This document shows positions 3,823 to 52,230 of a stretch of DNA of 64,000 nt, in pieces. The DNA comes from Acidimicrobiia bacterium (GTDB lineage: Bacteria > Actinomycetota > Acidimicrobiia > Spongiisociales > UBA11373), in assembly GCA_036478235.1 (NCBI GenBank), contig JAZGDZ010000089.1, positions 3,105 to 67,104 of the forward strand. Reading direction: 5' to 3'. Below the pieces are notes generated by a model. The model searched no databases. It saw only the letters and a list, made by a program, of their open reading frames with translations, and was not told the DNA's origin. Numbering within the stretch: the first letter of the stretch is position 1; each line of letters opens with the position of its first letter. The position numbers were made by a program, and so were the translations under genes.

Positions 3823-3867
3823 CGATCATTCCTTCGGTTCGGCTGCGGGGAGGTTACCGAGTTGGAA

Positions 3868-6461: not shown

Positions 6462-6745
6462 TTCACGTACTTCACTTCACCGCCGACCTCCCAGGTGTCC
6501 ACGATCGCCATCACAACCGCGTCACAAGGCCGGTCCTTGGTCAGGACCGTCTGGCGGGCCGACGAACCGGTGGCGTACAGCACCACCTCACCGACCCCGG
6601 CACCGACGGCGTCGGCTGCGACGACGTATCCACCGGTCTCGGCCTGCTCGACGTCGAGCTGCTTGATCACCAGGAACTTGAGGCCCTCGAGGGTGTCTTC
6701 CTTCCTCGACGACACAAGCGTCCCGGCGACCCGTCCCAGAAGCAC
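6458..6745 (-). CDS. BMC vertex protein (BMC-P), paralog 3
   Basis: Begins [31 protein letters not shown]..., EutN/CcmL family. 95 aa. Confidence 0.8.
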
Positions 6746-6759
6746 GGGCTACCCCGTTC

Positions 6760-7062
6760 CTAGCTGGACTCCGCCTCGGCCTCTTCGTGACGGCCGAGCG
6801 GCATGACCAGATCGATGTTGGTGTGGGGACGGGCGATGAGGTGAGTGGCGACGACCTCACCGACCTTCTCGGCGCCGCGGATGCCGGCGTCGATCGCAGC
6901 CTTTACCGCGGCAACGTCGCCGCGAATGACCGCCGTCACATAGCCGCCGCCGGTCTTCTCGTACGACACGAGCTCGACCTTTGCGGCCTTCACCATCGCA
7001 TCTCCTGCCTCGACCACCGCGGCGAATCCGCGGCATTCGATCATCCCGAGTGCTTCAGCCAT
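6760..7062 (-). CDS. BMC hexamer shell protein (BMC-H, PduA/EutM-like)
   Basis: Matches the canonical single-domain BMC sequence MAEALGMIECRGFAAVVEAGDAMVKAAKVELVSYEKTGGGYVTAVIRGDVAAVKAAIDAG...ARPH. Confidence 0.85.
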   Translation of the reverse strand: MAEALGMIECRGFAAVVEAGDAMVKAAKVELVSYEKTGGGYVTAVIRGDVAAVKAAIDAGIRGAEKVGEVVATHLIARPHTNIDLVMPLGRHEEAEAESS

Positions 7063-7107
7063 GGGCTCTCGTTCTCCTTTTCGTTGTCAATCCTCCGGGC
7101 GGAGCCG

Positions 7108-7743
7108 CTAATTCGCCTCCGTGCCTTCGATGCCTTCGAGGCCTTCGAGCGCATCCACCGCGGCCCGCCAGCCGACGTCGATGTCCCGCTCCTCTCCCCC
7201 GAGATAGACCCTTCCCAGCGATCCGAACGAGCGGACCTCCAGGATGTTGATGTCGGCCGCCTTCTCGGCCTCGTTGGCGGCGAGGGCAGCGTAGGACGCC
7301 GGCTCCATCTCGAGCACATAGAGCGTCTGACCGGGAATGAGCATCTGGCCGTGGCGCATCCGGTTGATGAGCTGCGCCTGGTGGTCGTCGATCCGCCGGA
7401 TTATCTGCGATGAGGCGATGCGGGGCTTGACGCGATCGGTCTCCTCGTGGCCGATCTCCGACAGGATGGCCGCTCCGGCGGCGCGCACGTCGGCCTGTTC
7501 CGGTGAGTGGATCTCGAGCAGCCCGAAGTAGCGCTCGACGATTTGCATGCCCGGCTTGACATGGGTCGCCTTGAGAGCGATATCGGTGAGACGGTTGATC
7601 TCGATCCCTGGAGAGATCTCGACGTAGAGGCTGGCGTCGCCGGCGAGCGGGAGGAAACCCTGGGCGATCGTGCCCAGGAACGCCGCGTACTGCGGCTGGA
7701 GGCTGTCGAGGAACGAGTATCCCCGCAGGTCAATACCGGCCAC
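7108..7743 (-). CDS. Putative second tandem-domain BMC shell protein (BMC-T)
   Basis: 211 aa with two diverged BMC-like halves ([39 protein letters not shown] and [51 protein letters not shown]). Whether the domains are permuted (EutL/PduB-like) cannot be told from sequence alone. Confidence 0.55.
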
Positions 7744-8587
7744 TGGCTGTCCCTCCTGTCACGATCTCGATTCCGGCGGATGCTCCGATTCTGGTCGCAC
7801 CGGCCGCGATCATCTGTTTGGCGTCTTCGGCACTGCGAATCCCCCCGGAGGCCTTCACCCCCATGTCCGGCCCCACCGCCTCCCGCATCAGTGCCACGTC
7901 GTACACCGTCGCCCCGCCCGGGCCGAAACCGGTCGACGTCTTCACGAAGTGGGCACGGGCCCGGCGGGCGATCCGGGAGACAATCACCTTTTCGTCATCC
8001 TCGAGCAAAGCCGCCTCGATTATGACCTTGCACAACGCTCCCGCCTCGCGGCACGAATCCGTCACCCCGACGATGTCGCGCTCGACGAGCTCGTAGTCCC
8101 CCGACTTGAGAGCGCCGACATTGACGACCATGTCGATCTCGCGGGCGCCGTCGCGGATGGCGCGCCGCGCCTCCAAGGCCTTTACCTCCGGGGTGGTCGC
8201 TCCGAGCGGGAACCCGACAACGCAGCACGTCAGGACCTGGGACCCGCGCAGCCTCTCGGCCACCCTTTTCGCCCACGTCGGGTTGACACACACGCTGGCA
8301 AACCCGTACTCGATCGCCTCGTCGCACATCCGGTCGACCTCCGCCGCGGTGGCGTCGGGTCTGAGCAGCGTATGATCGATGAATCCGGCGAGGTCGCCGG
8401 GGACATCCGCCCCGTTTCCGCTGTACGAGACCCGGGCAGCGCCGGCGGCGATCACCGACCGCACCTTCTCCGAAGAGTGGGCGGCGCAGTCACCCACACA
8501 GGCGAGGTAGTCATCCCAGGCCTCGCCGGCGATGGCGGCAAGCACCTCCTGGGTGATGGCATCGACAAGTTGGTCGCGTTCGGTCAC
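7730..8587 (-). CDS. deoC: Deoxyribose-phosphate aldolase (class I, DeoC family) with a ~70-aa N-terminal extension
   Basis: DeoC core motifs [33 protein letters not shown] and FVKTSTGF. The N-terminal helix [17 protein letters not shown] resembles an encapsulation peptide. Confidence 0.8.
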
Positions 8588-9174
8588 GCCGTACTCCTCG
8601 CGTACTTGCTCTCGATGTCGTCGATCTTCTCGACCCTAAGCGCGTGGCGCCCCTCCCCCCAGGGAGTCGCCAGCCACGCCTCGACGATCTGCAGCGCCAG
8701 ATTCTCGCCGATCAGCCCGGCGCCCAGGGTCAGGACGTTGGCATGGTTGTGCTCGCGGCTGTTGCGCGCTGAGGAAACGTCGTAGCAGAGTGCGGCCCGC
8801 ACGCCGGGAACCTTGTTGGCCGCCATAGCCGACCCGATGCCGGCACCGTCGATCACTATCCCCCAGCGGCAACCTCCTCCCGCCACCTGCTCAGCCACCG
8901 CTTGGGCGAAATCGGGGTAATCGACCGACTCCGCCGAGTCCGTGCCGCAATCGACCACCTCGTGGCCTTGCTCGCGCAACCGGAAGGCGATCCGCTCCTT
9001 GAGCCGGAAACCCCCGTGGTCGGCGCCGATGGCGATCGCCTCGGTCTGACCCCCGGGCACCTCTTCGGGCGGTGGCGGAGGGGCCGACGCCGCTGGCGTG
9101 CGCCCCAGGTCGTCGACGATCTTCCCCACCAGAGCTCGGATCTCGTCTTCTCCGGGGACTTCAAGGCGCGGCAC
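8584..9174 (-). CDS. rpiB: RpiB/LacAB-family sugar-phosphate isomerase with an N-terminal encapsulation-peptide-like extension
   Basis: RpiB core motifs IAIGADHGGFRLKE, VVDCG and GAGIGSAMAANKVPGVRAA. It is preceded by EDEIRALVGKIVDDL plus an APPPPPEEVPGG linker. Confidence 0.8.
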   Translation of the reverse strand: MPRLEVPGEDEIRALVGKIVDDLGRTPAASAPPPPPEEVPGGQTEAIAIGADHGGFRLKERIAFRLREQGHEVVDCGTDSAESVDYPDFAQAVAEQVAGGGCRWGIVIDGAGIGSAMAANKVPGVRAALCYDVSSARNSREHNHANVLTLGAGLIGENLALQIVEAWLATPWGEGRHALRVEKIDDIESKYARSTA

Positions 9175-9242
9175 GCAGCGATTATCCCACGAAGAACCGC
9201 CGCGAGCCGGAGGCCTAGTCTCAAAACGAACGAAGGATCATC

Positions 9243-9851
9243 GTGGCAGACGACTCAGCCTTCATCTGGGACCGGCCGACCCCACAGGTGACGCCGCGAC
9301 GCCGCCCGCCTATCCCGGAATCCGCAGCCCCCTCGCTCGAAGGCAGGATCACACTTCGAGAGGCGGAGCACCGCTTCGGGGTTCGGGTCTCGACCCTCCG
9401 AGCCTGGTCACGCCGCGGGTCGGTTGATGCGATCCGAACGCCCGGGCCTCACGGCGAGCAATGGATGGTCACGACCGAGTCGGTGGCGCACCATCTCAGC
9501 CGTCGAGCACCCCGAGCCACACCGACCGACGCTCCCCGATCGACCGGGCCCACCGAGGACGGCACCGCGATGCTCGTTCCCCGCGACGCCTGGGACCGCC
9601 TCATGGACCAGCTGGGAAACCTGCACGAGGCCGGCATGAATCTGGCCGAGGCCCGGGAGCGGGCCGCCAAGGCCGAGACCGAGGCGACGTTCCTACGGGA
9701 ACGATTGACCGAGATGCGCTCGGAGCGCGACGAGCTGAAGGAGCAGGCGCGACCAACCCAGCCGGACGCCCGAAGTGCGCCGTCTCCCACCTCGGGGGGA
9801 TGGGATTCCTTCCGAAAGCGCTACGGCTGGCTGTGGAGACGGAGGCACTAG
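9243..9851 (+). CDS. MerR-like HTH transcriptional regulator with a C-terminal coiled coil, divergent from the BMC operon
   Basis: Helix-turn-helix segment ITLREAEHRFGVRVSTLRAWSRRG and a C-terminal heptad-like segment (LAEARERAAKAETEATFLRERLTEMRSERDELKE). GTG start. 68-nt divergent intergenic region. Confidence 0.5.
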   Translation: MADDSAFIWDRPTPQVTPRRRPPIPESAAPSLEGRITLREAEHRFGVRVSTLRAWSRRGSVDAIRTPGPHGEQWMVTTESVAHHLSRRAPRATPTDAPRSTGPTEDGTAMLVPRDAWDRLMDQLGNLHEAGMNLAEARERAAKAETEATFLRERLTEMRSERDELKEQARPTQPDARSAPSPTSGGWDSFRKRYGWLWRRRH

Positions 9852-9860
9852 CCTCGCTCG

Positions 9861-10775
9861 GTGCGCCTCAAGCATTGGACCCTCCTGCTCATCGCCGCCT
9901 TCGGGTGGGGGGCGGGGGGCGTGATCACCCGGGCCGCATTCAACGAAGGCCTGGACCCGGTCGGGTTCAGCGCCTATCGCTCAGCAGTCGCGGCGATCGT
10001 CGTGCTCTCTTACCGGCTCGCCCGACGAGGCCGGCTGGGGCTGGGGCGTCGCGCCTGGCGCGCCGGTGCGGTCCTCGGGACGATCAACCTCGCCGTGCCC
10101 TTCCTGCTGCTCACGATCGCCGTCTCCTTTGCATCGGCCGGGTTCGTAGGGCTGCTGGTGGCAAACATCCCGATCGGCACCGCCGTTTGGGCGCATCTCC
10201 TGGGTGAGGAGAAAATCGACGCGCCCAGAGCGGTCGGGCTGGGTGTCGCCTTGAGCGGGGTGATGCTCCTTCTGCTCTCCGGCGACAGCGGACTCGATGA
10301 GGGCGGCAACCCGACACTGGCGATAGGCCTGTCGCTGATCGGCCTCGCATTCGCCTCGTACTCGATCCTGTTCGCCAAGCGCGCCACCGCCACCCTCGAT
10401 CCGGTGTCCATCGCCGGGCCCCAGTTCGTCGTCGGGACCGGGCTCCTCTTGCTGCTGGTGCCGTTCACCGACGGCGTGCCCTCAGAGGTGACGACCGCCG
10501 GTTGGGCGCTCGTGGTGGCGGCGGGCCTCCTGTCCACCGCGCTGCCCTTCCTCGTGTTCTACACCGCTTTGCCCAACATCAGCGCGACCCAGGCGTCGCT
10601 GGTCGGCTACGTGGTACCGCTCGTCTCCATCGTGCTGGGGGTGGCCTGGCTGGACGAGCGGGTCACCGCCGCGATAGCCGCCGGAGGGGCACTGATCCTG
10701 GGGGGCATAGTCCTCGCCGATCGCGCCGCAGCACAGGGGCGTCCGGCCCCAACGATCACCGGGCAACCGGAGTAG
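9861..10775 (+). CDS. EamA/DMT-family transporter
   Basis: 10-TM profile. The sequence shows two repeated hydrophobic halves, as in duplicated EamA-domain (DMT) proteins. Confidence 0.7.
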   Translation: MRLKHWTLLLIAAFGWGAGGVITRAAFNEGLDPVGFSAYRSAVAAIVVLSYRLARRGRLGLGRRAWRAGAVLGTINLAVPFLLLTIAVSFASAGFVGLLVANIPIGTAVWAHLLGEEKIDAPRAVGLGVALSGVMLLLLSGDSGLDEGGNPTLAIGLSLIGLAFASYSILFAKRATATLDPVSIAGPQFVVGTGLLLLLVPFTDGVPSEVTTAGWALVVAAGLLSTALPFLVFYTALPNISATQASLVGYVVPLVSIVLGVAWLDERVTAAIAAGGALILGGIVLADRAAAQGRPAPTITGQPE

Positions 10776-22019: not shown

Positions 22020-23887
22020 GTGTCCGAAACCTCGACCATCGACTCGTTCCACGTCGAAGCCCAGAAGGTCTCGGCGGTCGTCATCCGCTTCGCCGGAGAC
22101 TCCGGCGACGGCATGCAGTTGGCCGGAACCCGGTTCACCGAGGCGTCGGCGATCTTCGGGAACGACCTGGCGACCTTCCCGAACTTCCCGTCGGAGATTC
22201 GCGCCCCCGCCGGCACCTTGCCGGGAGTCTCGTCGTTCCAGGTGCAGATCGCCGACCGCGACATCCTCACCGCAGGTGATCATCCCGACGTCCTGATGGC
22301 CATGAACCCGGCGGCCCTGAAAGCCAACCTCGGCGACCTCGCCCCCGCCGGGACGATCATCGTGAACAGCGACGTCTTCGAGGAACGCAACCTCCACAAG
22401 GCCGGCTACGAGACGAATCCCCTCACCGACGGGTCGCTGGACACCTACCGGGTCCTCGAGGTGCCGATGGACGAGCTGACGAAGGAGGCCGTCAAGGACT
22501 CCGGGCTCAAGGGACGCGGCGTCCTCCGATCCAGGAACTTCTTCGCGCTGGGCCTGATGGCCTGGATGTTCGATCGCCCCCACCAGCCGACACTTGATTG
22601 GATCGACCGAAAGTTCGGCACGGACGAGGCCGTCCGCTCGGGGAACGAGCTGGCCTTCAAGGCAGGATTCAACCTCGGCGAGACGACGGAGATGTTCCGG
22701 CACACGTACGAGGTGAAGCCGGCCGCACTGCCGCCGGGAACGTACACCAACGTCACGGGGAACCAATCGCTCGCCTGGGGCTTGATCGCGGCCGCCCAGG
22801 CCGCCCGGCTCCCCCTCTTCTACGCCTCATACCCCATCACGCCAGCGTCCGACGTGCTGCACCAGCTCGCCAAGCACCGCAACTTCGGCGTGAGGACCTT
22901 CCAGGCGGAAGACGAGATCGCCGCCGTCGGAGCTGCCGTCGGGGCGTCGTTCGCCGGTCATCTCGGCGTCACCGGCACCAGCGGCCCCGGGTTGGCGCTC
23001 AAGAGTGAGACGATCAGCCTGGCGCTGACGACCGAGCTTCCCCTGCTCATCATCGACGTGCAGCGGGGCGGCCCTTCCACCGGGCTCCCCACGAAGACGG
23101 AGCAGTCCGATCTTTTGATGGTGATGTACGGGAGGCACGGTGAGTCGCCACTGCCGGTCGTCGCCATCTCCTCGCCGTCGGACGCGTTCGAGACCACGAT
23201 CGAGGCAGCCCGGATAGCCCTCAAGTACATGACCCCCGTGATCCTGCTGTCCGATGGGTACATCGCAACGAGCGCCGAGCCGTGGCTGCTCCCCGATGTA
23301 TCGCAAATGCCCGACATCTCGGTGCCGTTCGCGACCGAGGCCAACGGTGAAGACGGCGGCTTCCTGCCGTACCTGCGCGACTCCGAGACGCTGGCCCGCC
23401 CCTGGGCGGTCCCGGGGACGCCCGGCCTGGAGCATCGGCTCGGCGGGCTGGAGAAGGAGGATGTCACCGGCAACGTCTCCTACAACCCGCAGAACCACGA
23501 AAAGATGACCCTCCTGCGGGAGCAGAAGATCTCCGGCATCGCCGATGACATCCCCCCGATCGTCATCGACCAGGACGAGGACGCCGAAGTGCTCGTGCTC
23601 GGATGGGGCTCGTCGTACGCGGCCATCCTGGCCGGGGTGCGTCGGGTGCGCGCCGCCGGACGCAAGGTGGCCCGGGTCCACCTGCGCTACCTCAACCCAT
23701 TCGCCAAGAACCTGGGGGAGATCCTGGAGCGCTACCCGAAGGTGCTCATTCCGGAGCTCAACCGCGGCCAACTGTGGCGGCTGGTGCGCGGCGAGTTCCT
23801 CACCGACGCGATCTCATACCCGAAGGTGCAGGGGCAGCCGTTCAAGGCAGTGGAGATCGAAACCAAGCTCCTGGAGATGCTCGAGTC

Positions 23888-23891
<4 letters not shown>
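22020..23891 (+). CDS. korA: 2-oxoglutarate (2-oxoacid):ferredoxin oxidoreductase, alpha subunit
   Basis: N-terminus SAVVIRFAGDSGDGMQLAG with the typical KorA/OorA domain order. 623 aa. Confidence 0.85.
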
Positions 23892-24904
<1,013 letters not shown>

Positions 24905-24910
24905 CGGTCA

Positions 24911-25045
24911 GACATCAGACATCAGACATCAGACATCGGACATCGGACATCGGACATCGGACATCGGACATCGGACATCGAAGAGGGTCCCATTCTGAGA
25001 TCTGAAATCTGAGATCTCTCATCTGAAATCTGAGATCTGAGCTAG
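24911..25045. repeat. Composite heptamer-repeat element: (GACATCR)x9 - spacer - (TCTGARA)x~8
   Basis: gacatca x3 + gacatcg x6 (24911-24973), then aagagggtcccat, then tctgaga tctgaaa tctgaga tctctca tctgaaa tctgaga tctgagc. Lies between convergent korB and the Mo-enzyme gamma subunit gene. Confidence 0.85.
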
Positions 25046-25053
25046 GCAAATCT

Positions 25054-26064
25054 CTACCGCCTGGCGACCTCTCTGAGGATGATCCACACGACCCCGGTCG
25101 CTGCGGCGAGGAGCAAGAGCACGGCGAGAGCGACCGCGACGAGGAGTGCCGTCCCCCAGAACCCACCGTCGACGCCGGGGCGGGGTACGGGCAGCGACGC
25201 AGCGGCCTCGTCGGTGATGTCCAACTCGATGAACTGGGCGATCGACTTCTGACCGTTGCGGTCACCCTCCGCCCCATCCCACACGGCGAATGCGACCAGC
25301 GTCGTCTGGTCGACTGCAAAGGAGGGGCCGTCTGCCGTCGTCTCGAAGTCACGAGCGAAGAGCGCCCGCCACTTGCCGTCGCGCCAGTGGCCGACCCCGG
25401 CCACGTCCTGGGCGGAGGCCGGCGTCAACGTTCCGAAGCCCTCGGCGACGAGGCTCTCGACCGGGCTGGGGTGGTCCGAGGAAGCGAGTGGATTCCCCAC
25501 GTTCTGCGCCGGGTTGAAGATGGCCTCATCGGCTCCTGGATAGGTGTCGACCGCAGTGTTGGGATAAGGGCTGGAGGCAAAGCCATCGTCGATGTCCTTC
25601 TGCCACACCGCCTTCCACTGCCAGATGCTGACGGGCAGGTCGGTGGACCCCATCGTGTACGGGGGATTGGACCCCTCCACCGATGGAAACTGGACGGCAG
25701 CGGCGTCGGCGAAGAGCGTGGAGCCGTTCACGGCGTCGTCCACCTCGTCGTCGGCCCATTCCAGGAGCAGGAAGAGCCGGAAATCAGCATGGAGCGCCCG
25801 CACCGTCAGGGAACCCACGGCGCCGCCCCCGAATGGCGGCACCAGCTCCTGGGCGCTGAGCGAGACCTGCCTGGAGTTGGCCCCGTCCCACACCGCGGAC
25901 CAGGGATCGTCCTCGAGGACCGGCGCCGATGCGGGTGTCGCCTCGAGCCGCGGTGCCTGCGACTTGACCGGGATCAGGCCGAATACCCCGCCGACGAGTG
26001 CCAGCGCGACCACCGCGACCACTGTGATGCTCGACCGGCGCGGGCTCCTAAAGGATTTCAGCAT
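25054..26064 (-). CDS. Heme-b gamma subunit of a type II DMSO-reductase-family enzyme (EbdC/DdhC-like domain) with a C-terminal transmembrane anchor
   Basis: N-terminal signal/anchor, then a conserved EB_dh-like core (HADFRLFLLLEWADDEVDD...AVQFP...IWQWKAVW...GHWRDGKWRALFAR). C-terminal hydrophobic helix FWGTALLVAVALAVLLLLAAATGVVWIIL followed by REVARR. Confidence 0.65.
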   Translation of the reverse strand: MLKSFRSPRRSSITVVAVVALALVGGVFGLIPVKSQAPRLEATPASAPVLEDDPWSAVWDGANSRQVSLSAQELVPPFGGGAVGSLTVRALHADFRLFLLLEWADDEVDDAVNGSTLFADAAAVQFPSVEGSNPPYTMGSTDLPVSIWQWKAVWQKDIDDGFASSPYPNTAVDTYPGADEAIFNPAQNVGNPLASSDHPSPVESLVAEGFGTLTPASAQDVAGVGHWRDGKWRALFARDFETTADGPSFAVDQTTLVAFAVWDGAEGDRNGQKSIAQFIELDITDEAAASLPVPRPGVDGGFWGTALLVAVALAVLLLLAAATGVVWIILREVARR

Positions 26065-26806
26065 GCCGTGGCTCCGGGTCCGGCGCTAAGAAGGGAGGAC
26101 ACTCGTCGAGGGGACAGCCGTCCGCTTCCGTCGGCTCCGGCGGCGCCGGCTCGTCCCGATAGCGGTCGACCCTGCCGATACGGAGAAAGCGTTCCTCCCA
26201 CCCGATGAACTCTGCGAGGAGACGACCCGCCGCGGTGTGCCAGTCGCGACCACCCGCCAAGACGACCCTCCCCGCGATCAACGGGGCCCAGCGGGCCAGA
26301 TGCTCCCGCAGAAACGTGCGGTGGGCCGCCCGGGTCGTGTCGAGCCCGGAGCGGTCACCCTCCTCGCGGGCGCGGGCTTCCTTGAGTGCAAGGAGATAGG
26401 CGAATTCCAGCTCGACGGCGAGATGATCCGGCCTGTCGCCATCGGGCCGGACGCCAAACGCCCGGTAGAAGCCGGAGACATCGGCCTGGTGCTGGGTCTG
26501 CTGGAACACGTGGCTGGCACTGAATGCCGTCTCGTAGGGCGGGCAGTCCTCGGAGTAGCTCAGGGTGAACACCGTCTGGTGGGACCGCTCGAGGTCGCGT
26601 GCCCCGGTCCCGGCGAGGGCGCGCTCCAGCGCCTTCACCCCGGCAGCGATCTCGTCTGAGACGAGGGTGGCCCCGACGCGAGCCACCTCCAGGGCGCCTT
26701 CGAGTTGAGCGTGGACATCCTTCGTCGGATAGGAGAATGCGAGCGAGAGCAGCCGGTACATCGAGGCCCGGGCCAGCGCCCTCTCCTCGGCTGTGGCGCG
26801 TTTCAT
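26048..26806 (-). CDS. TorD/NarJ/EbdD-family molybdoenzyme maturation chaperone (delta subunit)
   Basis: Family signature RPDHLAVELEFAYLLAL. ATG at 26806 with GGAGG 9 nt downstream of the beta subunit stop. The long Arg/Gly-rich upstream extension is rejected. Confidence 0.65.
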   Translation of the reverse strand: MKRATAEERALARASMYRLLSLAFSYPTKDVHAQLEGALEVARVGATLVSDEIAAGVKALERALAGTGARDLERSHQTVFTLSYSEDCPPYETAFSASHVFQQTQHQADVSGFYRAFGVRPDGDRPDHLAVELEFAYLLALKEARAREEGDRSGLDTTRAAHRTFLREHLARWAPLIAGRVVLAGGRDWHTAAGRLLAEFIGWEERFLRIGRVDRYRDEPAPPEPTEADGCPLDECPPFLAPDPEPRHAEIL

Positions 26807-26814
26807 GATCCTCC

Positions 26815-28053
26815 CTAGATCGAGTTCAAATACTGGTCCGGCCGCTCGAAGTGGGCCTCGACCACCGAGGTCCGCACGATCTCCTCGCCGTCTCTCCCGT
26901 AACCAACCACGGTGTCGTTGAAGACCTCCAACGGCCGACCGTTGACGTTGACCTCCGACACCTTCTCGCCCTCGATCACCTCGAACTTGAAGATGATCTT
27001 CTGCGACACCCGGAAGAGCTGGAGGACCGCCTGGGTACGCCTTGTCGGGCGCTCGTAGACGTCGATGGCCCTTCCCACACCGGGCCCGAACATCTGTCGC
27101 AGATAGGGCCGGGGCACCCATCGCGGGGGGATGTAATAGATGTTGGGTTGGGTGCCGAACTGGGGATAGAGCGGCAGAGCCACCTGTGCCTCGCGGATCA
27201 GGTGATAGAGCGGGTTGTCCGGGTCCTCTATCCAGCTCCCCGTCTCGGTCACCGGCACCAGACCCTGCAGACGAATCTGACCGGGGCACACCGCCATGCA
27301 CCGCGCCTCCATCGGCAGTCCATCTGTCAGCGGGTCGGACCCCTCGATACGGGGAAAGCACCCGATGCACTTTTCCGAGGTGCGTGTGTTGGGCCGGTAC
27401 AGCGATTTCTTATAGGGACACTGTTCGACGCACTTGCGATAACCCCGGCAGCGGCGTTGGTCGATGAGGACGATCCCGTCCTCCTCCCGCTTGTAGATGG
27501 CGTCGCGAGGGCAGGCGGCGAGGCAGGCCGGATATGCACAGTGGTTGCAAAGCCGCTGCAGATAGAAGAACCACGTGTGGTGCTCCGGCAGCACAGCCCC
27601 CTCGGACAGGGGCCGGGTGGCACGCGGCGAGTCCTCAAACAGGTTCGGGGCCGACCACTCCTCATCCTCCGGGATGTACCCGACCGCCTGCTGGCGGCCC
27701 TGCTCGGCGGCCTCGAAGATCGTCGCGCCTTCATAGACACCGTATGGGGCATCGGGGCTGGAGCCGCCCTCCTCCCAGGTCTGACCTCCTGGGTTGGCTC
27801 GCTCGATGAGATCCAGCGTCTTCAGATCCCAGTGATGGGGATAGCCGCCGTACGGCTTGGTCTCCACGTTGTTCCACCACATGTCCTCCTGCCCCTCGGA
27901 GAACGTCCAGGTCGACTTACACGCCATCGTGCAGGTCTGGCAGGCGATGCAGCGGTTGATGTTGAACACGGCGGCGAACTGCCACTGGCCCGCCCCCGGG
28001 TCCAGCCGGTACGTCATCTCCCGCCCCAGCTGCCAGTTGTACACGCTGGCCAT
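26815..28053 (-). CDS. Four-cluster iron-sulfur beta subunit (NarH/EbdB/DdhB-like) of a type II DMSO-reductase-family enzyme
   Basis: Motifs [42 protein letters not shown] and [15 protein letters not shown] are the characteristic Cys groups. Confidence 0.85.
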
Positions 28054-28382
28054 CAGTCAGCCTCCCTGTTCGCACCGTCGGGGATCGACTGTCCGAAGAC
28101 CTCGTCGATCAGCGCCTTCACCCCGTCCTCGCCGAGCGCCTGCATGACCGCCGCCGCTCCGGCGTACCGCCGAACGGTGAACATCCGGGCCACCCGCTCC
28201 CGCGACCAACCCAACATCGCGAACTCCTCTACGAACGTGCGCCCCATGGCCTTCACCCCGTCGTGACCGGGCGTCGCCAGCGAAACTGCGGTGGCGATGA
28301 AGGGGTCGGTGGGCTCCGCCTGCTTCGTCCTCCCCGAGCGCGACACCAACTCGATCGGCACGAATCCGTGATCCGGGCTCAT
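28053..28382 (-). CDS. Small hypothetical protein (109 aa, no Cys) encoded between the alpha and beta subunit genes
   Basis: My translation: MSPDHGFVPIELVSRSGRTKQAEPTDPFIATAVSLATPGHDGVKAMGRTFVEEFAMLGWSRERVARMFTVRRYAGAAAVMQALGEDGVKALIDEVFGQSIPDGANREAD. Its ATG overlaps the alpha subunit stop (ATGA) and its TGA overlaps the beta subunit ATG (TGATG). Confidence 0.45.
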   Translation of the reverse strand: MSPDHGFVPIELVSRSGRTKQAEPTDPFIATAVSLATPGHDGVKAMGRTFVEEFAMLGWSRERVARMFTVRRYAGAAAVMQALGEDGVKALIDEVFGQSIPDGANREAD

Positions 28383-31300
28383 GAGATGAACCCCCCATCC
28401 AGGTAACGCAGCATTCGCTCGTCCTCTCCGGCGGGGGACATCCCCGACTCCCCCGGCTTCCACCGCCCCTGACCGCCCAGGCCTCCGTCCTCCGCCTTGA
28501 CGACCCTGACCAGGGTCTCCTTGGGAACGGTATTGATGGCGTGGTTGTCGGCCTCGCCGCCGAACATGAAGGCAAACTCGATCTTCGACTTGTGGAACAG
28601 GGTGTCGGTCTGATGCATCGGCATCGCCCAGTCGCGGGTCACGCTCTGGTGGGAGCCGTAGCGATAGCTCGACTGATACCCGGTGTCCTCCGAAACGGCT
28701 CGCCCGTCGGGTCGCGTCTCGTGGGCGAGCACCGTCTTCTGGGTGGCGAGCCAATAGCCGTGCTTGGCCATCAGCACGTCGTAGGGGTATGCCGGGTTGA
28801 ACCTGACCCGCAGCATGAGCCGGGCGACCTTGTGGAACGGATCGCTGGTGTCGTTGGGGTCGTAGTTCGGATATGGGCGGTCGGCCGGGTTGGCGTCGAT
28901 GTACACATAGTCGCCGTCGTTGAGCCCCAGGTCGCGGGCGGCGTCGGGGTTCATGTGCACCTCGCGGTCGCCGACGTGGGGAAGGCGAACGTCCCGGCGA
29001 TGCGGGTCCCCAAAGTTGTTGCCCCAGATCACATGCCAGTCGGTCACCGCCCAACCGCTGTGCGTCGTGTGGCGGGTCTTGGGTGTGAGGAAGTAGAAGC
29101 GGTAACCCGCCTCCCATAGAGGATTCTTGGACTCCTTGACCCCCGACCACGGCATCTTGATGTTGCGCACCGTGCGCAGGTCGGGGTCCATCTCCGTCTC
29201 CGGGATCCCATAGTCCTCGGGTCGGATCAACGGGTTGGAGGACACGATCACGTTGGGCAAGTACGGCGTGGCCTCGGGACCTTCGCGATGGACGATGAAG
29301 TTCTCGCCGTACTCGATCGCCTCGGGGATGTCCACGTAGGAGTGCATCCGCCCGGTGTCCGTCCAGAAGGGCAGGTCGTCGTGGATCTGCTCCCAGAAGG
29401 GGATGCGGGGGTAGGTGCGGAACATCATGAGGGCGGCGCCGGGTTCGCCGTACTTCCCGGCCTTGATGTCGTCCACCGTGTAGCCGCGGGTGGTGGCCGA
29501 GGCGTCGAGTAGCCGCTGCAGATAGACCTCGGCGCGGTCCTCCAGGGCGAACTTCCAGTAGTCGGTGAACCGCTCGTCTTCGAGCTGCGTGCCGAGACGC
29601 TCGGCGACACGAGCCATGATCATCAGGTCGTCTTCGCTGTCGAACAGCGGGGCGATGCCGTCCCTCCCCCAGATCTGCAGGAACGGGTTGGAGCAAGACG
29701 CCGTCACCTCGGAGGTCTGGAACTCGACCCACGAATTGGCGGGCAGGATGAAGTCGGAAAGCTCGCACGACGAGGTCATCTCGATGTCCTGTGTGACAAT
29801 CATGTCGACGTGGGGGTTGACGTCTCTGATCACCATGTATGCGTGCTTGGCGTTGTTGATCAGGTTGACGTTGGTGGTCCAGATGACCTTGGTCGGCGTT
29901 GGCATGTGGCTCTCGCCGGTAAAGTTCTTTCGCCCGAACTTCGGCGTCTCCACGATCAGCGCCTTGTCCCCGTGGTCCCAGTAGGCGGGCTCCTCGTCCT
30001 TGGCGTAGTTGTGGACGGAGATTTCCTTGCCGTCGGCGGTGTCGTCGAGGTTGGGGTTGAACGGGTCCTCGGCCACCCAACCCTTGAACCCGGGTCCAGA
30101 CCACTCCGTTGCCTGCCACAGGGCGGCCTTGTAGTTGCCGGCCCACGTGTGGCTCCCGGCGCCAAGCCGGCCGATGTTGCCGGTGAGCATCAGGGGGAGA
30201 TAGGTGGCCCGGTTGTGCAGGGTGGCATGGAACCAGTGATTGATTCCCTCTCCGGTGTGGATCCCCACCGGCTTGATCGTCGCGATGTCGTTCGCCAGCC
30301 TCTCGATGAGATCGATCGGCGTGCCCGTGATCTCGTGCACCGTGTCCAGGTCGTAGTCCTGGAGATGATCCCGGTGTGCCTCCCAGATGGTCAGCACCTG
30401 CACCTCGGTTCCGTCGGTCAGCACGACCGGGCCGCGGAATCCGAGGTCGGGCTCGAAGCCCGCCGCCGCCATCCGACCCCCGACGTCGTCGCGGGTGATG
30501 GCCCGGAGCTCGCCTCGACCCTTGTCGAAAATCACCCGGTCGCCGCCGATGGCCTCGTACTGCTCGGTCGTGAGCTTCTGCTTGCTGAAGCTGGGCCCGG
30601 CGGCGTCCAGTCCCGGCTCATAATCGGGGAACACATCCGATGCCCGGAGGCGCTCCAAGTTGTCCTCACGCAGCAACAGGGGGAAGTCTGTGTACTTGAG
30701 AACGAAGTCCTCGTCGTAGAGGTCCCGATCCATCAGGATCTTCGTGATCGCCAGGAAGATTGCGGTGTCGGAGAGCCCGGGGCGCACCGGAAGCCAATAG
30801 TCCGATTTGGTGGCGGGCGGGCTGTACTCGGGGGTGATCGTGACGATCTTGCCGCCGCGCTCCATGATGTTCGAGAAGAAGTGCGACTCGGGCATCTTGT
30901 TCTCGACGAGGTTCTTCCCCACCTGGATAGTGAGCTTGGAGTGAGCCAGGTCGTTGAAGTCGGGCTCGGATGTCTGCAACCCGTGGACGAAGGGGTGGCC
31001 GGGGGCCTGGTCGCCGTGCCAGGTGTAGTTGGACCAGTTGCGCCCCGCCTTGGCCTGGTCGGGCCCCACGCCGCGGACGTGGGTGTCGAGCAGAGCGAGA
31101 GTGTTGCTCATCCGGTACATGCCGTACTTGCCGATGACGCCGAGCAGGCCCATCCCGCCTCTCAGCTTCATCGTTCTGGTGCCGGCCCCGCCCATGGCCT
31201 CGATCATCTCGGGTTGGTATCCCTCGGCAGCGAGGCGGGCGGCTCCTTGCTCCCCGGAGTAGGTCGCGGCGACGTTCGTGAGACCGCGGGCCACGTATTC

Positions 31301-31828
31301 GTACGCCTCGTCCCAGGACAGCCGGGTGAAGGAGTCGGTGCCCCGGGAGTCGAACATGTACTTGGTCCGGTTGGCCGGCGTCAGCTCCGGAAAGCCATCG
31401 TCGGCCCACTGCTTCCAACCGACCCGCACCATGGGGAAGCGGAGTCGATACGGGCCGTAGACCCTGCGATGGAAAGTCTGCCCCTTGGGGCAGCCGCGCG
31501 GGTTCCACTTGACGGAGGCGGTGTTGCCGAGCTGGTCGGCGTAGGAGCCGGCGTCGTAGTTGGGCTCGATTCGCTGGATGACCCCGTTGCGCTCGAAGAC
31601 CCGTAGCCGGCAGGCGTGGGTGTCATTGGGCGAGCAAACGAAGGTGAAGCTGCGGTCGTAGGCGTACTGGTCGCGATAGACCTGCTCCCAGTTCCGGTAC
31701 GGATACGCGGTGAGCGGATTGTCCACTCCCTCGGCCAGCTGAAGGTTCCTGAGCAAGGGGAAGCTGGCGGCGCCAGCGGCGGCCACCGCACCCAGCTTGA
31801 GGAAATCCCTTCGAGTCAGGTTCGGCAT
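28379..31828 (-). CDS. Molybdopterin catalytic alpha subunit of a type II (Nar-like) DMSO-reductase-family oxidoreductase, Tat-exported, substrate unknown
   Basis: True N-terminus MPNLTRRDFLKLGAVAAAGAAS has a twin-arginine motif. N-terminal FeS (FS0) region VCSPNDTHAC...C. 1149 aa, in the NarG/EbdA/NxrA size class. The 333-aa in-frame upstream extension overlapping the next gene is rejected. Confidence 0.8.
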   Translation of the reverse strand: MPNLTRRDFLKLGAVAAAGAASFPLLRNLQLAEGVDNPLTAYPYRNWEQVYRDQYAYDRSFTFVCSPNDTHACRLRVFERNGVIQRIEPNYDAGSYADQLGNTASVKWNPRGCPKGQTFHRRVYGPYRLRFPMVRVGWKQWADDGFPELTPANRTKYMFDSRGTDSFTRLSWDEAYEYVARGLTNVAATYSGEQGAARLAAEGYQPEMIEAMGGAGTRTMKLRGGMGLLGVIGKYGMYRMSNTLALLDTHVRGVGPDQAKAGRNWSNYTWHGDQAPGHPFVHGLQTSEPDFNDLAHSKLTIQVGKNLVENKMPESHFFSNIMERGGKIVTITPEYSPPATKSDYWLPVRPGLSDTAIFLAITKILMDRDLYDEDFVLKYTDFPLLLREDNLERLRASDVFPDYEPGLDAAGPSFSKQKLTTEQYEAIGGDRVIFDKGRGELRAITRDDVGGRMAAAGFEPDLGFRGPVVLTDGTEVQVLTIWEAHRDHLQDYDLDTVHEITGTPIDLIERLANDIATIKPVGIHTGEGINHWFHATLHNRATYLPLMLTGNIGRLGAGSHTWAGNYKAALWQATEWSGPGFKGWVAEDPFNPNLDDTADGKEISVHNYAKDEEPAYWDHGDKALIVETPKFGRKNFTGESHMPTPTKVIWTTNVNLINNAKHAYMVIRDVNPHVDMIVTQDIEMTSSCELSDFILPANSWVEFQTSEVTASCSNPFLQIWGRDGIAPLFDSEDDLMIMARVAERLGTQLEDERFTDYWKFALEDRAEVYLQRLLDASATTRGYTVDDIKAGKYGEPGAALMMFRTYPRIPFWEQIHDDLPFWTDTGRMHSYVDIPEAIEYGENFIVHREGPEATPYLPNVIVSSNPLIRPEDYGIPETEMDPDLRTVRNIKMPWSGVKESKNPLWEAGYRFYFLTPKTRHTTHSGWAVTDWHVIWGNNFGDPHRRDVRLPHVGDREVHMNPDAARDLGLNDGDYVYIDANPADRPYPNYDPNDTSDPFHKVARLMLRVRFNPAYPYDVLMAKHGYWLATQKTVLAHETRPDGRAVSEDTGYQSSYRYGSHQSVTRDWAMPMHQTDTLFHKSKIEFAFMFGGEADNHAINTVPKETLVRVVKAEDGGLGGQGRWKPGESGMSPAGEDERMLRYLDGGFIS

Positions 31829-32808
31829 CACACTCCCCTCTCGTCGTCGGAGCCGTCCCCGATCGATCCTTGGGTAATGAGAAAGAGCCCGAGCAGGGCG
31901 CTCAGGTTGTGATGGACCGCCGTTGGGGCGGTCCCGGCCACCCAGAGGAGAGCGATCCCGGCGGCGATCAGGCGGACTCTCCCGTCGCTGACGGCTCCGG
32001 CGGCCAGCATCCCCGATGCTGCTGCCGCCGCCACGTAGAAGATCAACGGCAGCCCCAGCGTCGCTCCGAGCGCCCAGGTCGAGAGGAGAGCCGAGAAGCC
32101 GGGCCGGGACAGCATGAGACCGGCAGCCATGGCGGCGGCAACGAATCCCGCGATCCGCACCGCCCGGGTTGTTCCGCCCCCGGCGAAGGAGATCGCCGCC
32201 AGCACCGGAGCAGCGAGCAGAGCGGCCTCGGCGCCGGAGCGCACCAGGGCCGAGTCGCCCACCGCCGGGGCCAGAAATGCGATCTGCCCCAATGCGACTC
32301 CGAAGCCGGCGCTCACCGCTGCCGCCCGCATGAATCCCCGCGGCCCGGGAGCTGCAACCAGCACCGCCGCCCCCAGGATCACAAAGCCATGGAGAGCCCC
32401 CCGTGTCCCGGTCCCGACGGCGACGGAGGCGATCACGGTGAACGCGGCGGCGACCGGGAGGATGGTCCCGGCGAATCGCCGGGGCACCCGGGATGCGACG
32501 CCGACGGTGAATGCCGAGATGACAACGAGCGCAGCCACCGCTCCGGCGATGCCCGACCCGCCGAGCTCCAGACCCCTGGCCAGTGCTGGTCGGGACGGAG
32601 CCAAATAGGCCACCAGGGCGGCGCCGACCCGGTCGACCAGGATCTCGGCCAAGGCCAGGAGTGCTGCGGCGCCTGCCAGCATATGGGCCGTGGCGGGGAG
32701 TCGGTGGGAGGCTGCTCTCGCCGTCGGTGCGGACGGAACTACTGCTGGAATGGGTCGAACCCTCTTCGAGAGCGCCGGTGCTGTCATCGTCGACAAGGTT
32801 ATAGTCAT
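31828..32808 (-). CDS. Ala-rich polytopic integral membrane protein, first gene of the Mo-enzyme operon
   Basis: Eight or more hydrophobic segments. Its stop overlaps the alpha subunit start (TGATG). The start could be a later Met (MLAGAAALL). Confidence 0.45.
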   Translation of the reverse strand: MTITLSTMTAPALSKRVRPIPAVVPSAPTARAASHRLPATAHMLAGAAALLALAEILVDRVGAALVAYLAPSRPALARGLELGGSGIAGAVAALVVISAFTVGVASRVPRRFAGTILPVAAAFTVIASVAVGTGTRGALHGFVILGAAVLVAAPGPRGFMRAAAVSAGFGVALGQIAFLAPAVGDSALVRSGAEAALLAAPVLAAISFAGGGTTRAVRIAGFVAAAMAAGLMLSRPGFSALLSTWALGATLGLPLIFYVAAAAASGMLAAGAVSDGRVRLIAAGIALLWVAGTAPTAVHHNLSALLGLFLITQGSIGDGSDDERGV

Positions 32809-32861
32809 CCTGATAGATGAACGTCAAGCTAAGAAGTGGACGTTGTGGATAGGCCCCAGCC

Positions 32862-33365
32862 GTGAAGGTGACTCTGGGCCGACGCGGTGACTACGCAGTT
32901 CGGGCAATGATGAACGTCGCCCGCCACTCCCCGCAGCGGCGCAAGGCCCGCCAGATCGTGGCGGAGATGGACCTCCCCGAACGCTACGCCACCCAGATCC
33001 TCGGCACCCTGGTCAACTCCGGGTTCCTCGAAGCCCAGGCCGGGCCCGACGGTGGATACACCCTCGGCCGCTCCGCCGACGAGATAAGCCTCCTGGAGGT
33101 GGTCGAGCTCGCCGAGGGCCCGGTCACCCTCGACCAGTGCACGCTGCGGGGCGGGCCCTGCGACTGGGTGGCCTCGTGCCCGCTGCACGAATCGTGGGCC
33201 GCCGCCCAGACCGCCTTCACCGACCGGCTCCGGGCAACGACCTTTGCCGAACTGGCAGCGGCGGATGCGGCGATGAACGCCGACGGTGACCAGACCGAAC
33301 AGCCCCACCGGATTCATATCGAGCGGCGTGGAATCCGGCCGTCGCTAGATCACCCCACCAAGTAG
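32862..33365 (+). CDS. Rrf2-family transcriptional regulator (IscR/NsrR-like, predicted FeS-binding)
   Basis: N-terminal wHTH GDYAVRAMMNVAR...LPERYATQILGTLVNSGFLE. Three Cys in CTLRGGPCDWVASCPL with spacing typical of Rrf2 cluster ligands. Divergent from the Mo-enzyme operon. Confidence 0.75.
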   Translation: MKVTLGRRGDYAVRAMMNVARHSPQRRKARQIVAEMDLPERYATQILGTLVNSGFLEAQAGPDGGYTLGRSADEISLLEVVELAEGPVTLDQCTLRGGPCDWVASCPLHESWAAAQTAFTDRLRATTFAELAAADAAMNADGDQTEQPHRIHIERRGIRPSLDHPTK

Positions 33366-51995: not shown

Positions 51996-52230
51996 TTCTA
52001 CCTCCTCGTGATTTCCTTCACAAGAACACGACCGGGATGCGGCACGCACGGGCCAAAAGTCCTTCGGTGTGTCGTAACTCCGACGTTGCAGGAGGCACAC
52101 CGACGGAAGTCCGTCAATCGGCGGCCGATGGCAGACCCTGCGCCCGCCCGCAATCCGCAACTCGCGGGCACTCCCTACAATCCGGCGCCGCAGGTGGACG
52201 AGGTATCCACAACGACCCGGGAGGCGGCAG

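Follow-up and report, generated by a model that had tools for sequence, protein, structure and literature searches.

A probable NXR-type nitrite:nitrate oxidoreductase operon with two conserved unnamed accessory genes in an Acidimicrobiia bacterium

An intact operon for a molybdenum enzyme with predicted export

Which substrate does the molybdoenzyme encoded at this Acidimicrobiia locus act on, and in which direction? The original prediction described an uncharacterised operon of the type II DMSO-reductase family whose substrate could not be inferred. The family call holds, and each subunit passes its HMM checks. Both reservations proved too cautious: the enzyme falls inside the NXR clade, with a full-length match to the crystallised and kinetically characterised Kuenenia NXR, and nitrite/nitrate would be the expected pair; physiological direction is what the sequence cannot give. 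We consider it probable that the locus is an NXR-type nitrite:nitrate oxidoreductase operon of the 'periplasmic NXR' clade (Nitrospira/Nitrospina/anammox), carried by an uncultured Acidimicrobiia host.

Re-checking the ORF coordinates bore out the predicted gene order, strands and sizes (Table 1), everything except the Rrf2 gene lying on the minus strand. The described architecture stands likewise: a leading membrane protein (M), Tat-type alpha, four-cluster beta, TorD/NarJ-like chaperone and EbdC-like heme-b gamma, with a divergent Rrf2 regulator. Together with the small ORF X, this gives the order M-A-X-B-D-C. Neighbours overlap by 1 nt (M/alpha), 4 nt (alpha/orf109, ATGA), 1 nt (orf109/beta) and 17 nt (chaperone/gamma), leaving X translationally coupled on both sides. 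GC3 is high (0.83–0.86) in every ORF of the operon region, as expected of genuine genes in a genome of 67% GC. The operon is intact. Its predicted product is a molybdenum enzyme, exported and tethered to the membrane, that recognisably belongs to a known family; two conserved accessory genes without names and a dedicated putative Fe-S regulator accompany it.

Table 1. Genes and predicted regulatory features of the operon region (positions within the window, the whole 64-kb stretch of DNA analysed)
Feature	Coordinates	Strand	Details
NxrC-type gamma	25054-26064	-	336 aa
TorD/NarJ-family chaperone, NxrD-like	26048-26806	-	252 aa
NxrB-type beta	26815-28053	-	412 aa
Small protein X (109-aa ORF, orf109)	28053-28382	-	109 aa
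NxrA-type alpha	28379-31828	-	1149 aa, N-terminus MPNLTRRDFLK
Membrane protein M	31828-32808	-	maximal ORF, 326 aa; likelier 31828..32787, 319 aa
Sigma-70-type promoter (predicted)	32798..32827	-	-35 TTGACG 32827-32822, 18-nt spacer, -10 TATAAC 32803-32798
25-bp inverted repeat AACGTC-N13-GACGTT	32820..32844		putative Rrf2 operator, overlaps -35 box
Rrf2-family regulator	32862-33365	+	167 aa, divergent from operon

The alpha subunit belongs with NxrA

Residues 3–1148 of alpha align to residues 2–1144 of Kuenenia NxrA (PDB 7b04_B) with 1700 bits; PcrA, EbdA and NarG reach 168, 145 and 121 bits. The subunit contains PF00384 and is 62–64% identical to Brocadia and Nitrospinaceae NxrA (64% for Nitrospinaceae), which are 66–67% identical to one another. 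NxrA identities have been tiered at ~60% within the clade, ~40% to Nitrotoga-type enzymes and ~20% to NarG/EbdA (PMC8387239). Our assignment to the NXR clade rests on these PDB scores, identities and tiers, the accompanying tree containing neither Nitrospira NxrA nor outgroups. That NJ tree, unrooted and built from 81 members of the clade, places alpha in an Acidimicrobiia-type clade (bootstrap 200/200), whose union with Dehalococcoidia/Tepidiforma sequences is likewise recovered in 200/200 replicates. The Acidimicrobiia/Dehalococcoidia subclade has no characterised member. NxrABC of Nitrospina and Nitrospira share the wider clade and the periplasmic orientation; they come from obligate or primary nitrite oxidisers, the present enzyme from an Acidimicrobiia bacterium.

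The catalytic and cofactor residues of the Kuenenia enzyme are named in its structure paper (PMC8387239). Alpha C65, N68, D69, C73, C113 and D273 equate to KsNxrA C67, N70, D71, C75, C115 and D275, so that the Mo-coordinating Asp (D273), the substrate-positioning Asn (N68) and the three Cys plus Asp of FS0 are all present. Inspection of the Mo ligand and substrate site, a check put forward with the original prediction, thus matched D273 and N68 to Kuenenia D275 and N70. Over the 81 loci C65, N68, C73, C113 and D273 are invariant; the D69 position is Asp in 73 and Cys in 8. It is the full-length alignment to Kuenenia NXR, with every catalytic and cofactor residue kept, that makes nitrite/nitrate the expected substrate pair.

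A type II enzyme acting on something else (chlorate/perchlorate, selenate, DMS, or ethylbenzene- or steroid-type hydroxylation) would share much of this locus, and yet we think it improbable. The Ebd, Ser, Clr, Ddh and Pcr systems have in common with it a Tat-exported alpha, a four-cluster beta, an EbdC-type heme-b gamma and an A-B-chaperone-C layout, the A-B-D-C gene order being found in some of them. The generic type II models are also the best NCBIfam hits, though under their cut-offs (TIGR03479/03478/03477: alpha 327 versus 985, beta 266 versus 481, gamma 140 versus 170 bits); the enzyme is related to this curated subfamily but lies outside it. Its alpha exceeds theirs in length by ~200 aa, and the similarity is distant (145–168 bits to EbdA and PcrA, against 1700 to NxrA), and it is predicted to be membrane-tethered whereas those enzymes are soluble. 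The Asn that positions the substrate, invariant here, is Ile in EbdA (PMC8387239). Identity of at least 61% over the whole clade suggests a single conserved reaction, and neither chlorite dismutase nor hydrocarbon-pathway genes occur nearby in the window.

Export bears on a second alternative, a respiratory nitrate reductase of NarGHI type that faces the cytoplasm and whose Tat motif is vestigial. The motif (T-R-R-D-F-L-K) matches the consensus, is retained in 77 of 81 relatives and exceeds two curated cut-offs (TAT_signal PF10518, 23.0 versus 22.7 bits; TIGR01409, 20.7 versus 16.7 bits), predicting Tat export of alpha. The size of alpha is within the NarG range, KEGG-style pipelines pool such subunits under narG/nxrA, and E. 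coli NarGHJI likewise has Mo-bis-MGD with an Asp ligand, an FS0–FS4 wire and a NarJ-family chaperone. The E. coli enzyme differs in facing the cytoplasm, in its FS0 ligand (His, not Asp), in its diheme NarI membrane anchor and in a NarG that gives only ~120 bits with alpha. With 133 bits, the narG equivalog TIGR01580 stays far below its cut-off of 1084, placing alpha outside cytoplasmic NarG; NarI is absent, and gamma is instead an exported EB_dh heme-b protein. Low equivalog score, Tat signal, EB_dh gamma and missing NarI effectively refute the respiratory NarGHI reading, which we consider barely conceivable.

Beta and gamma complete an NXR-type complex

Beta matches NxrB (PDB 7b04_A) over its full length with 585 bits, compared with 205 for PcrB, 199 for EbdB and 165 for NarH; its family matches are Fer4_11 and DMSO_red_II_bet (266 bits). 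Its 15 Cys fall in a 4+4+3+4 pattern (groups starting at residues 35, 169, 202 and 229), providing three [4Fe-4S] and one [3Fe-4S] cluster; the 12-residue group III lacks its second Cys. Gamma carries PF09459 (EB_dh, 100 bits), scores 95 bits with NxrC (PDB 7b04_C) and 67 with EbdC, and has M138 and K273 at the positions of M155 and K305, which bind heme in KsNxrC. Hydrophobic segments at 13–31 and 308–326 correspond to an N-terminal signal and a C-terminal TM anchor, and no CxxCH motif was found in the 336 aa. The chaperone matches PF02613 (71.8 bits) and, below its cut-off of 152, the type II DMSOR chaperone model TIGR03482 (81.8 bits).

All three subunits align full length with Kuenenia stuttgartiensis NXR-ABC (PDB 7B04; Chicano et al. 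2021, PMC8387239). The two systems share the Mo-Asp, substrate Asn, 3Cys/1Asp FS0, Met/Lys heme b, Tat signal on alpha and TorD-like chaperone in the cluster. Kuenenia NxrC is soluble, whereas gamma here has its C-terminal membrane anchor. In the anammoxosome, the Kuenenia complex and the heme-c protein NXR-T together build tubules; neither the operon described here nor the annotated genes around it include an NXR-T-like gene.

Two conserved accessory proteins, X and M

Protein X has no Cys, signal peptide or TM helix, and no Pfam, NCBIfam, PDB sequence or fold match. Its AF2 model contains a confident C-terminal three-helix domain (residues 42–96); the N-terminal 40 aa are modelled with low confidence and bear a conserved EPTDP...TPG.DG motif. 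Of 81 loci searched by HMM, 68 have a homologue, which follows alpha directly in 67 and lies upstream of it in L012. Among these are the Nitrospinota loci L058 and L061, where, as here, the gene sits between nxrA and nxrB; the L061 gamma differs (~530 aa, two CxxCH, no C-terminal anchor) and this locus is without M. None of seven anammox loci yielded X by HMM. In Brocadia and its relatives, which also lack M, the order is C-B-D-(319-aa Cys-rich ORF)-A, unlike M-A-X-B-D-C with a divergent Rrf2. A library of 1.84 billion proteins holds 452 representative clusters of X homologues, whose named members are all labelled 'hypothetical protein'. X thus belongs to an unannotated family conserved beside nxrA. 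Nitrobacter NxrX, annotated as a peptidyl-prolyl isomerase, is also encoded between nxrA and nxrB; X resembles it in position only, with no rotamase or other Pfam match. X would most likely serve as a maturation factor or small subunit.

Protein M has ~10 TM helices (11 helices in its AF2 model, pTM 0.77), no Pfam or NCBIfam match and no specific PDB fold match. An iterated HMM found homologues in 38 related loci, all of Chloroflexota/Actinomycetota type, mostly directly after gamma and always alongside a TM-anchored gamma. R60, G84, E194, W245, G248, P254, Y258 and G292 are conserved; the alignment shows no conserved His, Cys or Met, and no conserved heme or metal ligands. M may most plausibly act as a membrane partner or dock for the tethered complex. 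The roles given here for X and M are guesses, neither protein having a fold or family match.

The predicted M coordinates stand as a maximal ORF; the start does not. Its ATG at 32808 falls within the promoter's conserved -10 box, making 32787 the likelier start. From there the protein begins MTAPALS, common to the 91%-identical relative L085. A public gene call starts M further in, at 32682 (284 aa).

A putative Fe-S regulator over a conserved promoter

The divergent regulator has the winged-helix Rrf2 signature (PF02082, 103 bits; TIGR00738, 92 bits) and, like NsrR, IscR, RsrR and RirA, three clustered Cys. It differs from these named Fe-S regulators in its CX6CX5C spacing and in equivalog scores under the cut-offs (RirA 64.5 versus 193, IscR 57.6 versus 207, NsrR 39.3 versus 182 bits; CymR also below). 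The best PDB matches reach ~34–43 bits (CymR, RsrR, IscR, NsrR). Putative Fe-S ligands are D10, C93, C100, C106 and H109; we take D10 to occupy the NsrR Asp8 ligand position and H109 that of IscR His107, offsets that fit the PDB alignment. Orthologues adjoin pNXR operons in L002, L003, L005, L021, L084–L086 and the Chloroflexia loci L046 and L057. The three Cys are kept in 10 of 10 aligned orthologues, the His is conserved too, and D10 is kept in nine, the N-terminus of L002 being mis-called. On its three conserved Cys the protein is a putative Fe-S-type regulator matching no named equivalog.

Promoter and operator (Table 1) are predicted from conservation. This -35/-10 pair, with a 17–18 nt spacer, recurs in all seven Acidimicrobiia-type loci examined; the final C of its -10 box explains why a generic scan passed over it here. 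The inverted repeat is the sole match to its pattern in the window even with one mismatch allowed (0.26 expected), although 23 of 100 shuffles contain at least one match, so the pattern by itself is not statistically rare in the window. Its weight as a candidate operator comes instead from its position in relatives. Among the first 81 loci the exact repeat occurs only in L001–L003, each time in the Rrf2/operon intergenic region; with a relaxed pattern it also turns up in the corresponding place in L084, L005 and L021, and L085 has a near-match by eye. The Rrf2 gene with its promoter/operator arrangement is conserved in seven loci, and Tepidiforma loci carry a divergent Crp/FNR-type regulator at the Rrf2 position. 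Bound to the repeat that overlaps the -35 box, Rrf2 would probably act as a repressor of the operon, and derepression would follow modification of its cluster, whether by NO, O2, a redox change or the like.

Assembly, electron path and direction

By homology, the TorD/NarJ-like chaperone would retain NxrA in the cytoplasm while Mo-bis-MGD and FS0 are inserted, after which NxrA and NxrB would be exported jointly via Tat. NxrC would be exported separately, acquire one Met/Lys-ligated heme b and tether the complex to the outer membrane face by its C-terminal helix. Electrons could then run from the Mo site, with Asp273 as its ligand and Asn68 to position the substrate, through FS0 (3 Cys + Asp69) and FS1–FS4 of NxrB to the NxrC heme b.

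As to direction, regulated nitrate reduction under low O2 or NO is favoured at somewhat short of even chances; nitrite oxidation into an aerobic chain is a lesser but serious possibility, and the remainder goes to both, depending on conditions. Were the enzyme mainly a nitrite oxidase, nitrite would be oxidised outside the membrane and electrons passed from the NxrC heme b to an actinobacterial bcc-aa3 chain, allowing the Acidimicrobiia host to gain energy lithotrophically or lithoheterotrophically, or to detoxify nitrite. The physiologically understood clade members come from the nitrite oxidisers Nitrospira, Nitrospina and anammox bacteria (PMC8387239, PMC3578206). Met/Lys heme b is described as a likely contributor to a high redox potential (PMC8387239), and with the active site facing outward, protons are released on the outer side of the membrane (PMC3578206). 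The Kuenenia enzyme nevertheless works in both directions (PMC8387239), and the likely hosts belong to heterotroph lineages in which surveys annotate such genes as narGH (PMC12008989, PMC13335318). Beyond the operon, the window holds no nitrogen-cycle, cytochrome c, oxidase or CO2-fixation genes, so local context supports neither a direction nor a redox partner. The neighbouring regulators also count against a mainly oxidative role, being of the Fe-S Rrf2 and Crp/FNR kinds that usually govern NO- or anoxia-responsive genes.

Among relatives the NXR module is found in differing chromosomal contexts. In the close relative L084, 5.5 kb separate it from an operon for an aa3-type oxidase, which favours nitrite oxidation. 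In L088, a 73%-identical relative, genes for a nirA-type nitrite reductase and an Nrt-like ABC transporter stand directly upstream on the same strand, the only context that would back nitrite/nitrate catalysis.

A complete NXR-type operon among housekeeping genes

The operon is real and intact. The original prediction had listed six minus-strand genes and a divergent Rrf2 gene at 25054–33365, and this list was borne out exactly, the order being membrane protein M, alpha, small protein X (orf109), beta, chaperone and gamma (M-A-X-B-D-C); the subunit calls also passed Pfam and NCBIfam checks. Start and stop codons overlap at four junctions (M/alpha, alpha/orf109, orf109/beta and chaperone/gamma), and the GC3 of the operon genes (0.83–0.86) is like that of other real genes in this 67% GC sequence.

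Genes of the operon and its divergent regulator, in window coordinates
Gene	Coordinates	Strand	Remarks
Membrane protein M, polytopic	31828–32808 (maximal ORF)	-	No Pfam/NCBIfam match
Alpha, 1149 aa	28379–31828	-	N-terminus MPNLTRRDFLK; NxrA-type
orf109 (X), 109 aa	28053–28382	-	No Pfam/NCBIfam match
Beta, 412 aa	26815–28053	-	NxrB best PDB match
Chaperone, 252 aa	26048–26806	-	Family call passed by Pfam/NCBIfam
Gamma, 336 aa	25054–26064	-	NxrC best PDB match
Rrf2 regulator, 167 aa	32862–33365	+	Divergent from operon

The surrounding genes are of the housekeeping type (ATP synthase operon, Rho, RF1, SHMT, homoserine dehydrogenase, MurJ and polyphosphate kinase), with peptidases and a KorAB-like 2-oxoacid:ferredoxin oxidoreductase as further neighbours. 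Elsewhere in the 64-kb window there are no genes for the nitrogen cycle, cytochrome c, oxidases or CO2 fixation, and an Rfam scan of its whole length returned no riboswitch or any RNA family. A generic promoter/terminator scan, which also missed the operon promoter, found no convincing terminator 3′ of gamma.

The KorAB-like enzyme (22020–24904, plus strand; 623 aa with POR/POR_N and 338 aa with TPP_enzyme_C) is convergent with the operon. The pair is syntenic in the related loci L085 (91% identical) and L086, and not in L084 (on a 4.16-Mb contig) or L089, so enzyme and operon probably lie side by side by chance. The gap between the gamma stop and the KorB-like gene (24911–25041) holds two 7-nt tandem arrays, GACATCG x10 (24911–24980) and TCTGAGA x about 7 (24994–25041). 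In syntenic L085 this position also holds a pair of 7-nt arrays, built from other units (GCAGATT-like, and CTGCCGT x about 10); no such arrays occur in relatives whose genomic context differs. Elsewhere, an 809-aa ORF (50058–52487, minus strand) has a gene-like GC3 of 0.82 and no Pfam match.

The enzyme is of the NxrABC kind

In a search of all PDB sequences, alpha matched Kuenenia stuttgartiensis NxrA over its full length (7b04_B, 1700 bits, residues 3–1148 on 2–1144); PcrA, EbdA and NarG score 168, 145 and about 120 bits, respectively. The best PDB matches of beta and gamma are NxrB (585 bits) and NxrC (95 bits). Alpha stays far under the cut-off of the narG equivalog, and the curated models of the type II DMSOR subfamily likewise give scores far under theirs, so the enzyme is neither NarG nor a member of the curated Ebd/Ser/Clr/Pcr subfamilies; the equivalog and PDB scores together rule out a NarG-type reading.

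In Kuenenia NXR, Asp275 ligates Mo, Asn70 (Ile in EbdA) positions the substrate, the FS0 cluster has an unusual 3Cys/1Asp ligand set (C67, D71, C75 and C115) and the NxrC heme b is held by Met155 and Lys305 (PMC8387239). Aligning the Mo-Asp and substrate site put D273 and N68 of the window alpha at the positions of Asp275 and Asn70. The FS0 ligands (C65, D69, C73 and C113) and gamma M138 and K273 likewise align with their Kuenenia counterparts. Beta contains 15 Cys residues grouped 4+4+3+4, the pattern expected of three [4Fe-4S] clusters and one [3Fe-4S] cluster. The FS0 Asp (alpha 69) is replaced by Cys in 8 of the 81 loci of the main comparison set (L008, L010, L011, L016, L017, L018, L058 from Nitrospinaceae and L067 from Rokubacteria), which would carry an all-Cys FS0 cluster.

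The window alpha is 62–63% identical to Brocadia NxrA and 64% to Nitrospinaceae NxrA, which share 66–67% with each other. Kuenenia NxrA is ~60% identical to NxrA of nitrite oxidisers, ~40% to Nitrotoga/Hydrogenobaculum types and ~20% to Nitrobacter-type, Nar and EbdA proteins (PMC8387239); by these tiers, 62–64% places the window enzyme in the tightest one. Judged from sequence, its substrate pair is very probably nitrite/nitrate. The earlier statement that the substrate could not be inferred was thus too cautious: the pair is predictable, and only the direction is not.

Distribution and phylogeny

NXR produces virtually all biological nitrate, and NXR-type genes serve as markers for nitrite oxidisers. 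At this locus an NXR-type operon is complete, well conserved and part of the Acidimicrobiia core chromosome. When genomes were scanned at one per species, more than 560 from many phyla had this alpha type (62–85% identity to the window alpha in the best 80 of these), so marker surveys cannot equate the enzyme with nitrification; pipelines that label this alpha type narG may be wrong.

The nearest alpha homologues (80–91% identity) come from Acidimicrobiia/Actinomycetota MAGs, followed at ~70% by Dehalococcoidia/Chloroflexota. In an unrooted NJ tree of 81 alpha sequences, built without Nitrospira and outgroups, the window and five other Acidimicrobiia-type sequences form one group (bootstrap 200/200), joined by one Chloroflexota sequence (195/200) and then by a Dehalococcoidia/Tepidiforma group (200/200). 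Other parts of the tree hold the anammox and Nitrospinota sequences. The Acidimicrobiia/Dehalococcoidia subclade is without a characterised member. Yellowstone Chloroflexota nitrite oxidisers have been cultured, and use a different, Nitrotoga-like NXR (PMC11009272), which makes them uninformative on this subclade. Literature on Acidimicrobiia and nxr yielded survey-level mentions only; in the Acidimicrobiia order UBA5794 such genes were counted as narGHI or nxrAB and read as nitrate reductases (PMC12008989; PMC13335318).

The whole module (Rrf2, then M-A-X-B-D-C) occupies at least three chromosomal neighbourhoods in Acidimicrobiia-type genomes (L084, L089 and L085/L086), and appears to move or rearrange as one unit. 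Three loci carry odd labels, reflecting either wrong binning or recent transfer. L004 (labelled Chloroflexota, with an M gene) and L005 (labelled Kiloniellales, with M and Rrf2 genes) have alpha subunits 82% identical to the window's, and L016, labelled Saprospiraceae, groups with Dehalococcoidia. A single 558-aa product (Fer4 domains plus Nitrate_red_del) spans beta and chaperone in the gene call of the Tepidiforma MAG locus L087 (13715–15391), and reflects either fused genes or an artefact (miscall or frameshift).

Gamma architectures and membrane protein M

The enzyme kind is the known part of this system; what the locus adds is the X and M families, three gamma architectures and a conserved Rrf2 promoter/operator. 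The window gamma has a hydrophobic signal at its N-terminus, a heme-b domain and, at residues 308–326, a C-terminal helix of strong hydrophobicity. Across loci, the three architectures track the alpha tree: an anchored form of ~320–370 aa without CxxCH (Chloroflexota and Actinomycetota, including the window); an unanchored form of ~520–570 aa carrying two CxxCH motifs (Omnitrophota, non-anammox Planctomycetota, Binatia, a Nitrospinota MAG and Methylomirabilales); and a soluble form of ~323 aa in anammox bacteria.

With the window M as seed, an iterated HMM search found homologues in 38 loci, all with an anchored gamma (C-terminal hydrophobicity being borderline in one, L032). The M gene directly follows gamma in most Chloroflexota; a position before alpha is confined to the Acidimicrobiia clade and its sister. 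Pfam searches with eight homologues gave no credible family; the AF2 model is confident (10–11 helices, pTM 0.77), and no specific fold relative of it was found. R60, E194, W245 and Y258 are conserved in the family, and no His, Cys or Met is, so M is not a cytochrome. An HH motif near the C-terminus was dropped as a candidate heme ligand, being conserved only within the Acidimicrobiia clade. We take M as the likely membrane partner of the tethered complex. Judged from taxonomic distribution and from what is generally known of cell envelopes, anchor and M may be an adaptation of monoderm (single-membrane) phyla, in which an exported enzyme would otherwise be lost.

Small protein X

X has no Cys, signal peptide or TM helix. 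Close relatives conserve an N-terminal EPTDP...TAVSL.TPG.DG and a C-terminal FVEEFA..GW.RE...MF motif, and the AF2 model combines a confident three-helix domain (42–96) with a low-confidence N-terminus. There is no credible family by Pfam on ten distant members, no fold match by Foldseek against the PDB and no match of the X profile to PDB sequences. Against 1.84 billion representative proteins, the profile found 452 clusters, all of small proteins, whose named members are all 'hypothetical protein'. By HMM, X lies directly 3′ of alpha in 67 of 81 loci, including both Nitrospinota loci, and in none of seven anammox loci; one locus (L012) has it upstream of alpha, and a distant member, P0137, belongs to the same operon type. 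This distribution, together with the lack of a named member, makes X an unnamed, conserved part of NXR-type operons outside anammox bacteria. Literature searches for a gene between nxrA and nxrB gave no hits. With low confidence, we suggest that X is a maturation factor or small subunit. Both X and M are conserved, unnamed and travel with the enzyme, making them obvious candidates for inclusion in attempts at recombinant periplasmic NXR production.

Brocadiaceae loci, where X is absent, encode a 319-aa protein with a C-terminal CxxC...CxxC between the chaperone gene and nxrA (for example, L071, 8975–9934). We rejected this ORF as a diverged X; it is an unrelated Cys-rich protein.

Rrf2 regulator, conserved promoter and putative operator

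The Rrf2 protein is distant from CymR, RsrR, IscR and NsrR (about 34–43 bits) and below every equivalog cut-off. Ten orthologues were aligned, all encoded beside NXR-type operons, eight of them from Acidimicrobiia-type and two from Chloroflexia loci. All ten keep C93, C100, C106 and H109, and nine keep D10; the remaining one (L002) has a mis-called N-terminus. We take the three cysteines to be cluster ligands, with D10 presumably equivalent to NsrR Asp8 and H109 to IscR His107, offsets that fit the PDB alignment.

All seven Acidimicrobiia-type loci share an operon-facing promoter in the intergenic region (-35 TTGACG/A, 17–18 nt spacer, -10 TATAAC/TATATA/TACAAG) and an AACGTY-N13-RACGTT inverted repeat that extends with its right arm into the -35 box. 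A search of the 64 kb that tolerated one mismatch found no copy besides the window repeat at 32820–32844 (0.26 matches expected). Among the first 81 loci, the exact repeat occurs only in L001–L003, each time at this spot; a relaxed-pattern scan placed it at the same position in L084, L005 and L021, and a near-match in L085 was read by eye. This layout predicts that Rrf2 would repress the operon and that cluster modification would release repression. The Rrf2 gene and putative operator offer a testable switch that could reveal when these bacteria use the enzyme. Tepidiforma-type loci have a divergent Crp/FNR-type regulator in place of Rrf2.

Given the overlap between the -10 box and the ATG at 32808, M probably starts at 32787, which would give a nearly leaderless transcript. 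L085 has the same peptide, MTAPALS, as is encoded from there; in the public gene call, M starts at 32682.

Direction of use

Other authors hold that direction is not assignable from sequence in this clade (PMC10839748; PMC10732223). We place mainly nitrate reduction at a little under an even chance; the host lineages are likely heterotrophs, and the adjacent regulators belong to the Fe-S Rrf2 and Crp/FNR kinds, whose usual targets are genes that respond to NO or anoxia. Mainly nitrite oxidation is plausible at a lower probability. It is favoured by the nitrite-oxidising organisms from which the understood clade members come, the outward-facing active site, an aa3-type COX1/2/3 operon 5.5 kb from the module in L084, and the Met/Lys heme b, which likely contributes to high redox potential (PMC8387239). 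The remaining share goes to condition-dependent use in both directions; Kuenenia NXR runs both ways (PMC8387239).

A more specific proposal, which we consider unlikely, is that in Acidimicrobiia and Dehalococcoidia-type Chloroflexota the tethered NXR oxidises nitrite aerobically, and that X (following nxrA in most non-anammox loci) and M (the membrane partner in Chloroflexota/Actinomycetota-type loci) are functionally required, previously unrecognised NXR parts. If true, nitrite oxidation by this enzyme type would be added to these two phyla.

In L088, a 73%-identical relative, the stretch directly upstream of M-A-X-B-D-C on the same strand (3454–9987) encodes a NIR_SIR (nirA-type) reductase, an Nrt-like transporter (NMT1_2/BPD_transp_1/ABC_tran) and a small Oxidored_molyb protein. 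These neighbours tie the enzyme to nitrate/nitrite metabolism and fit either direction.
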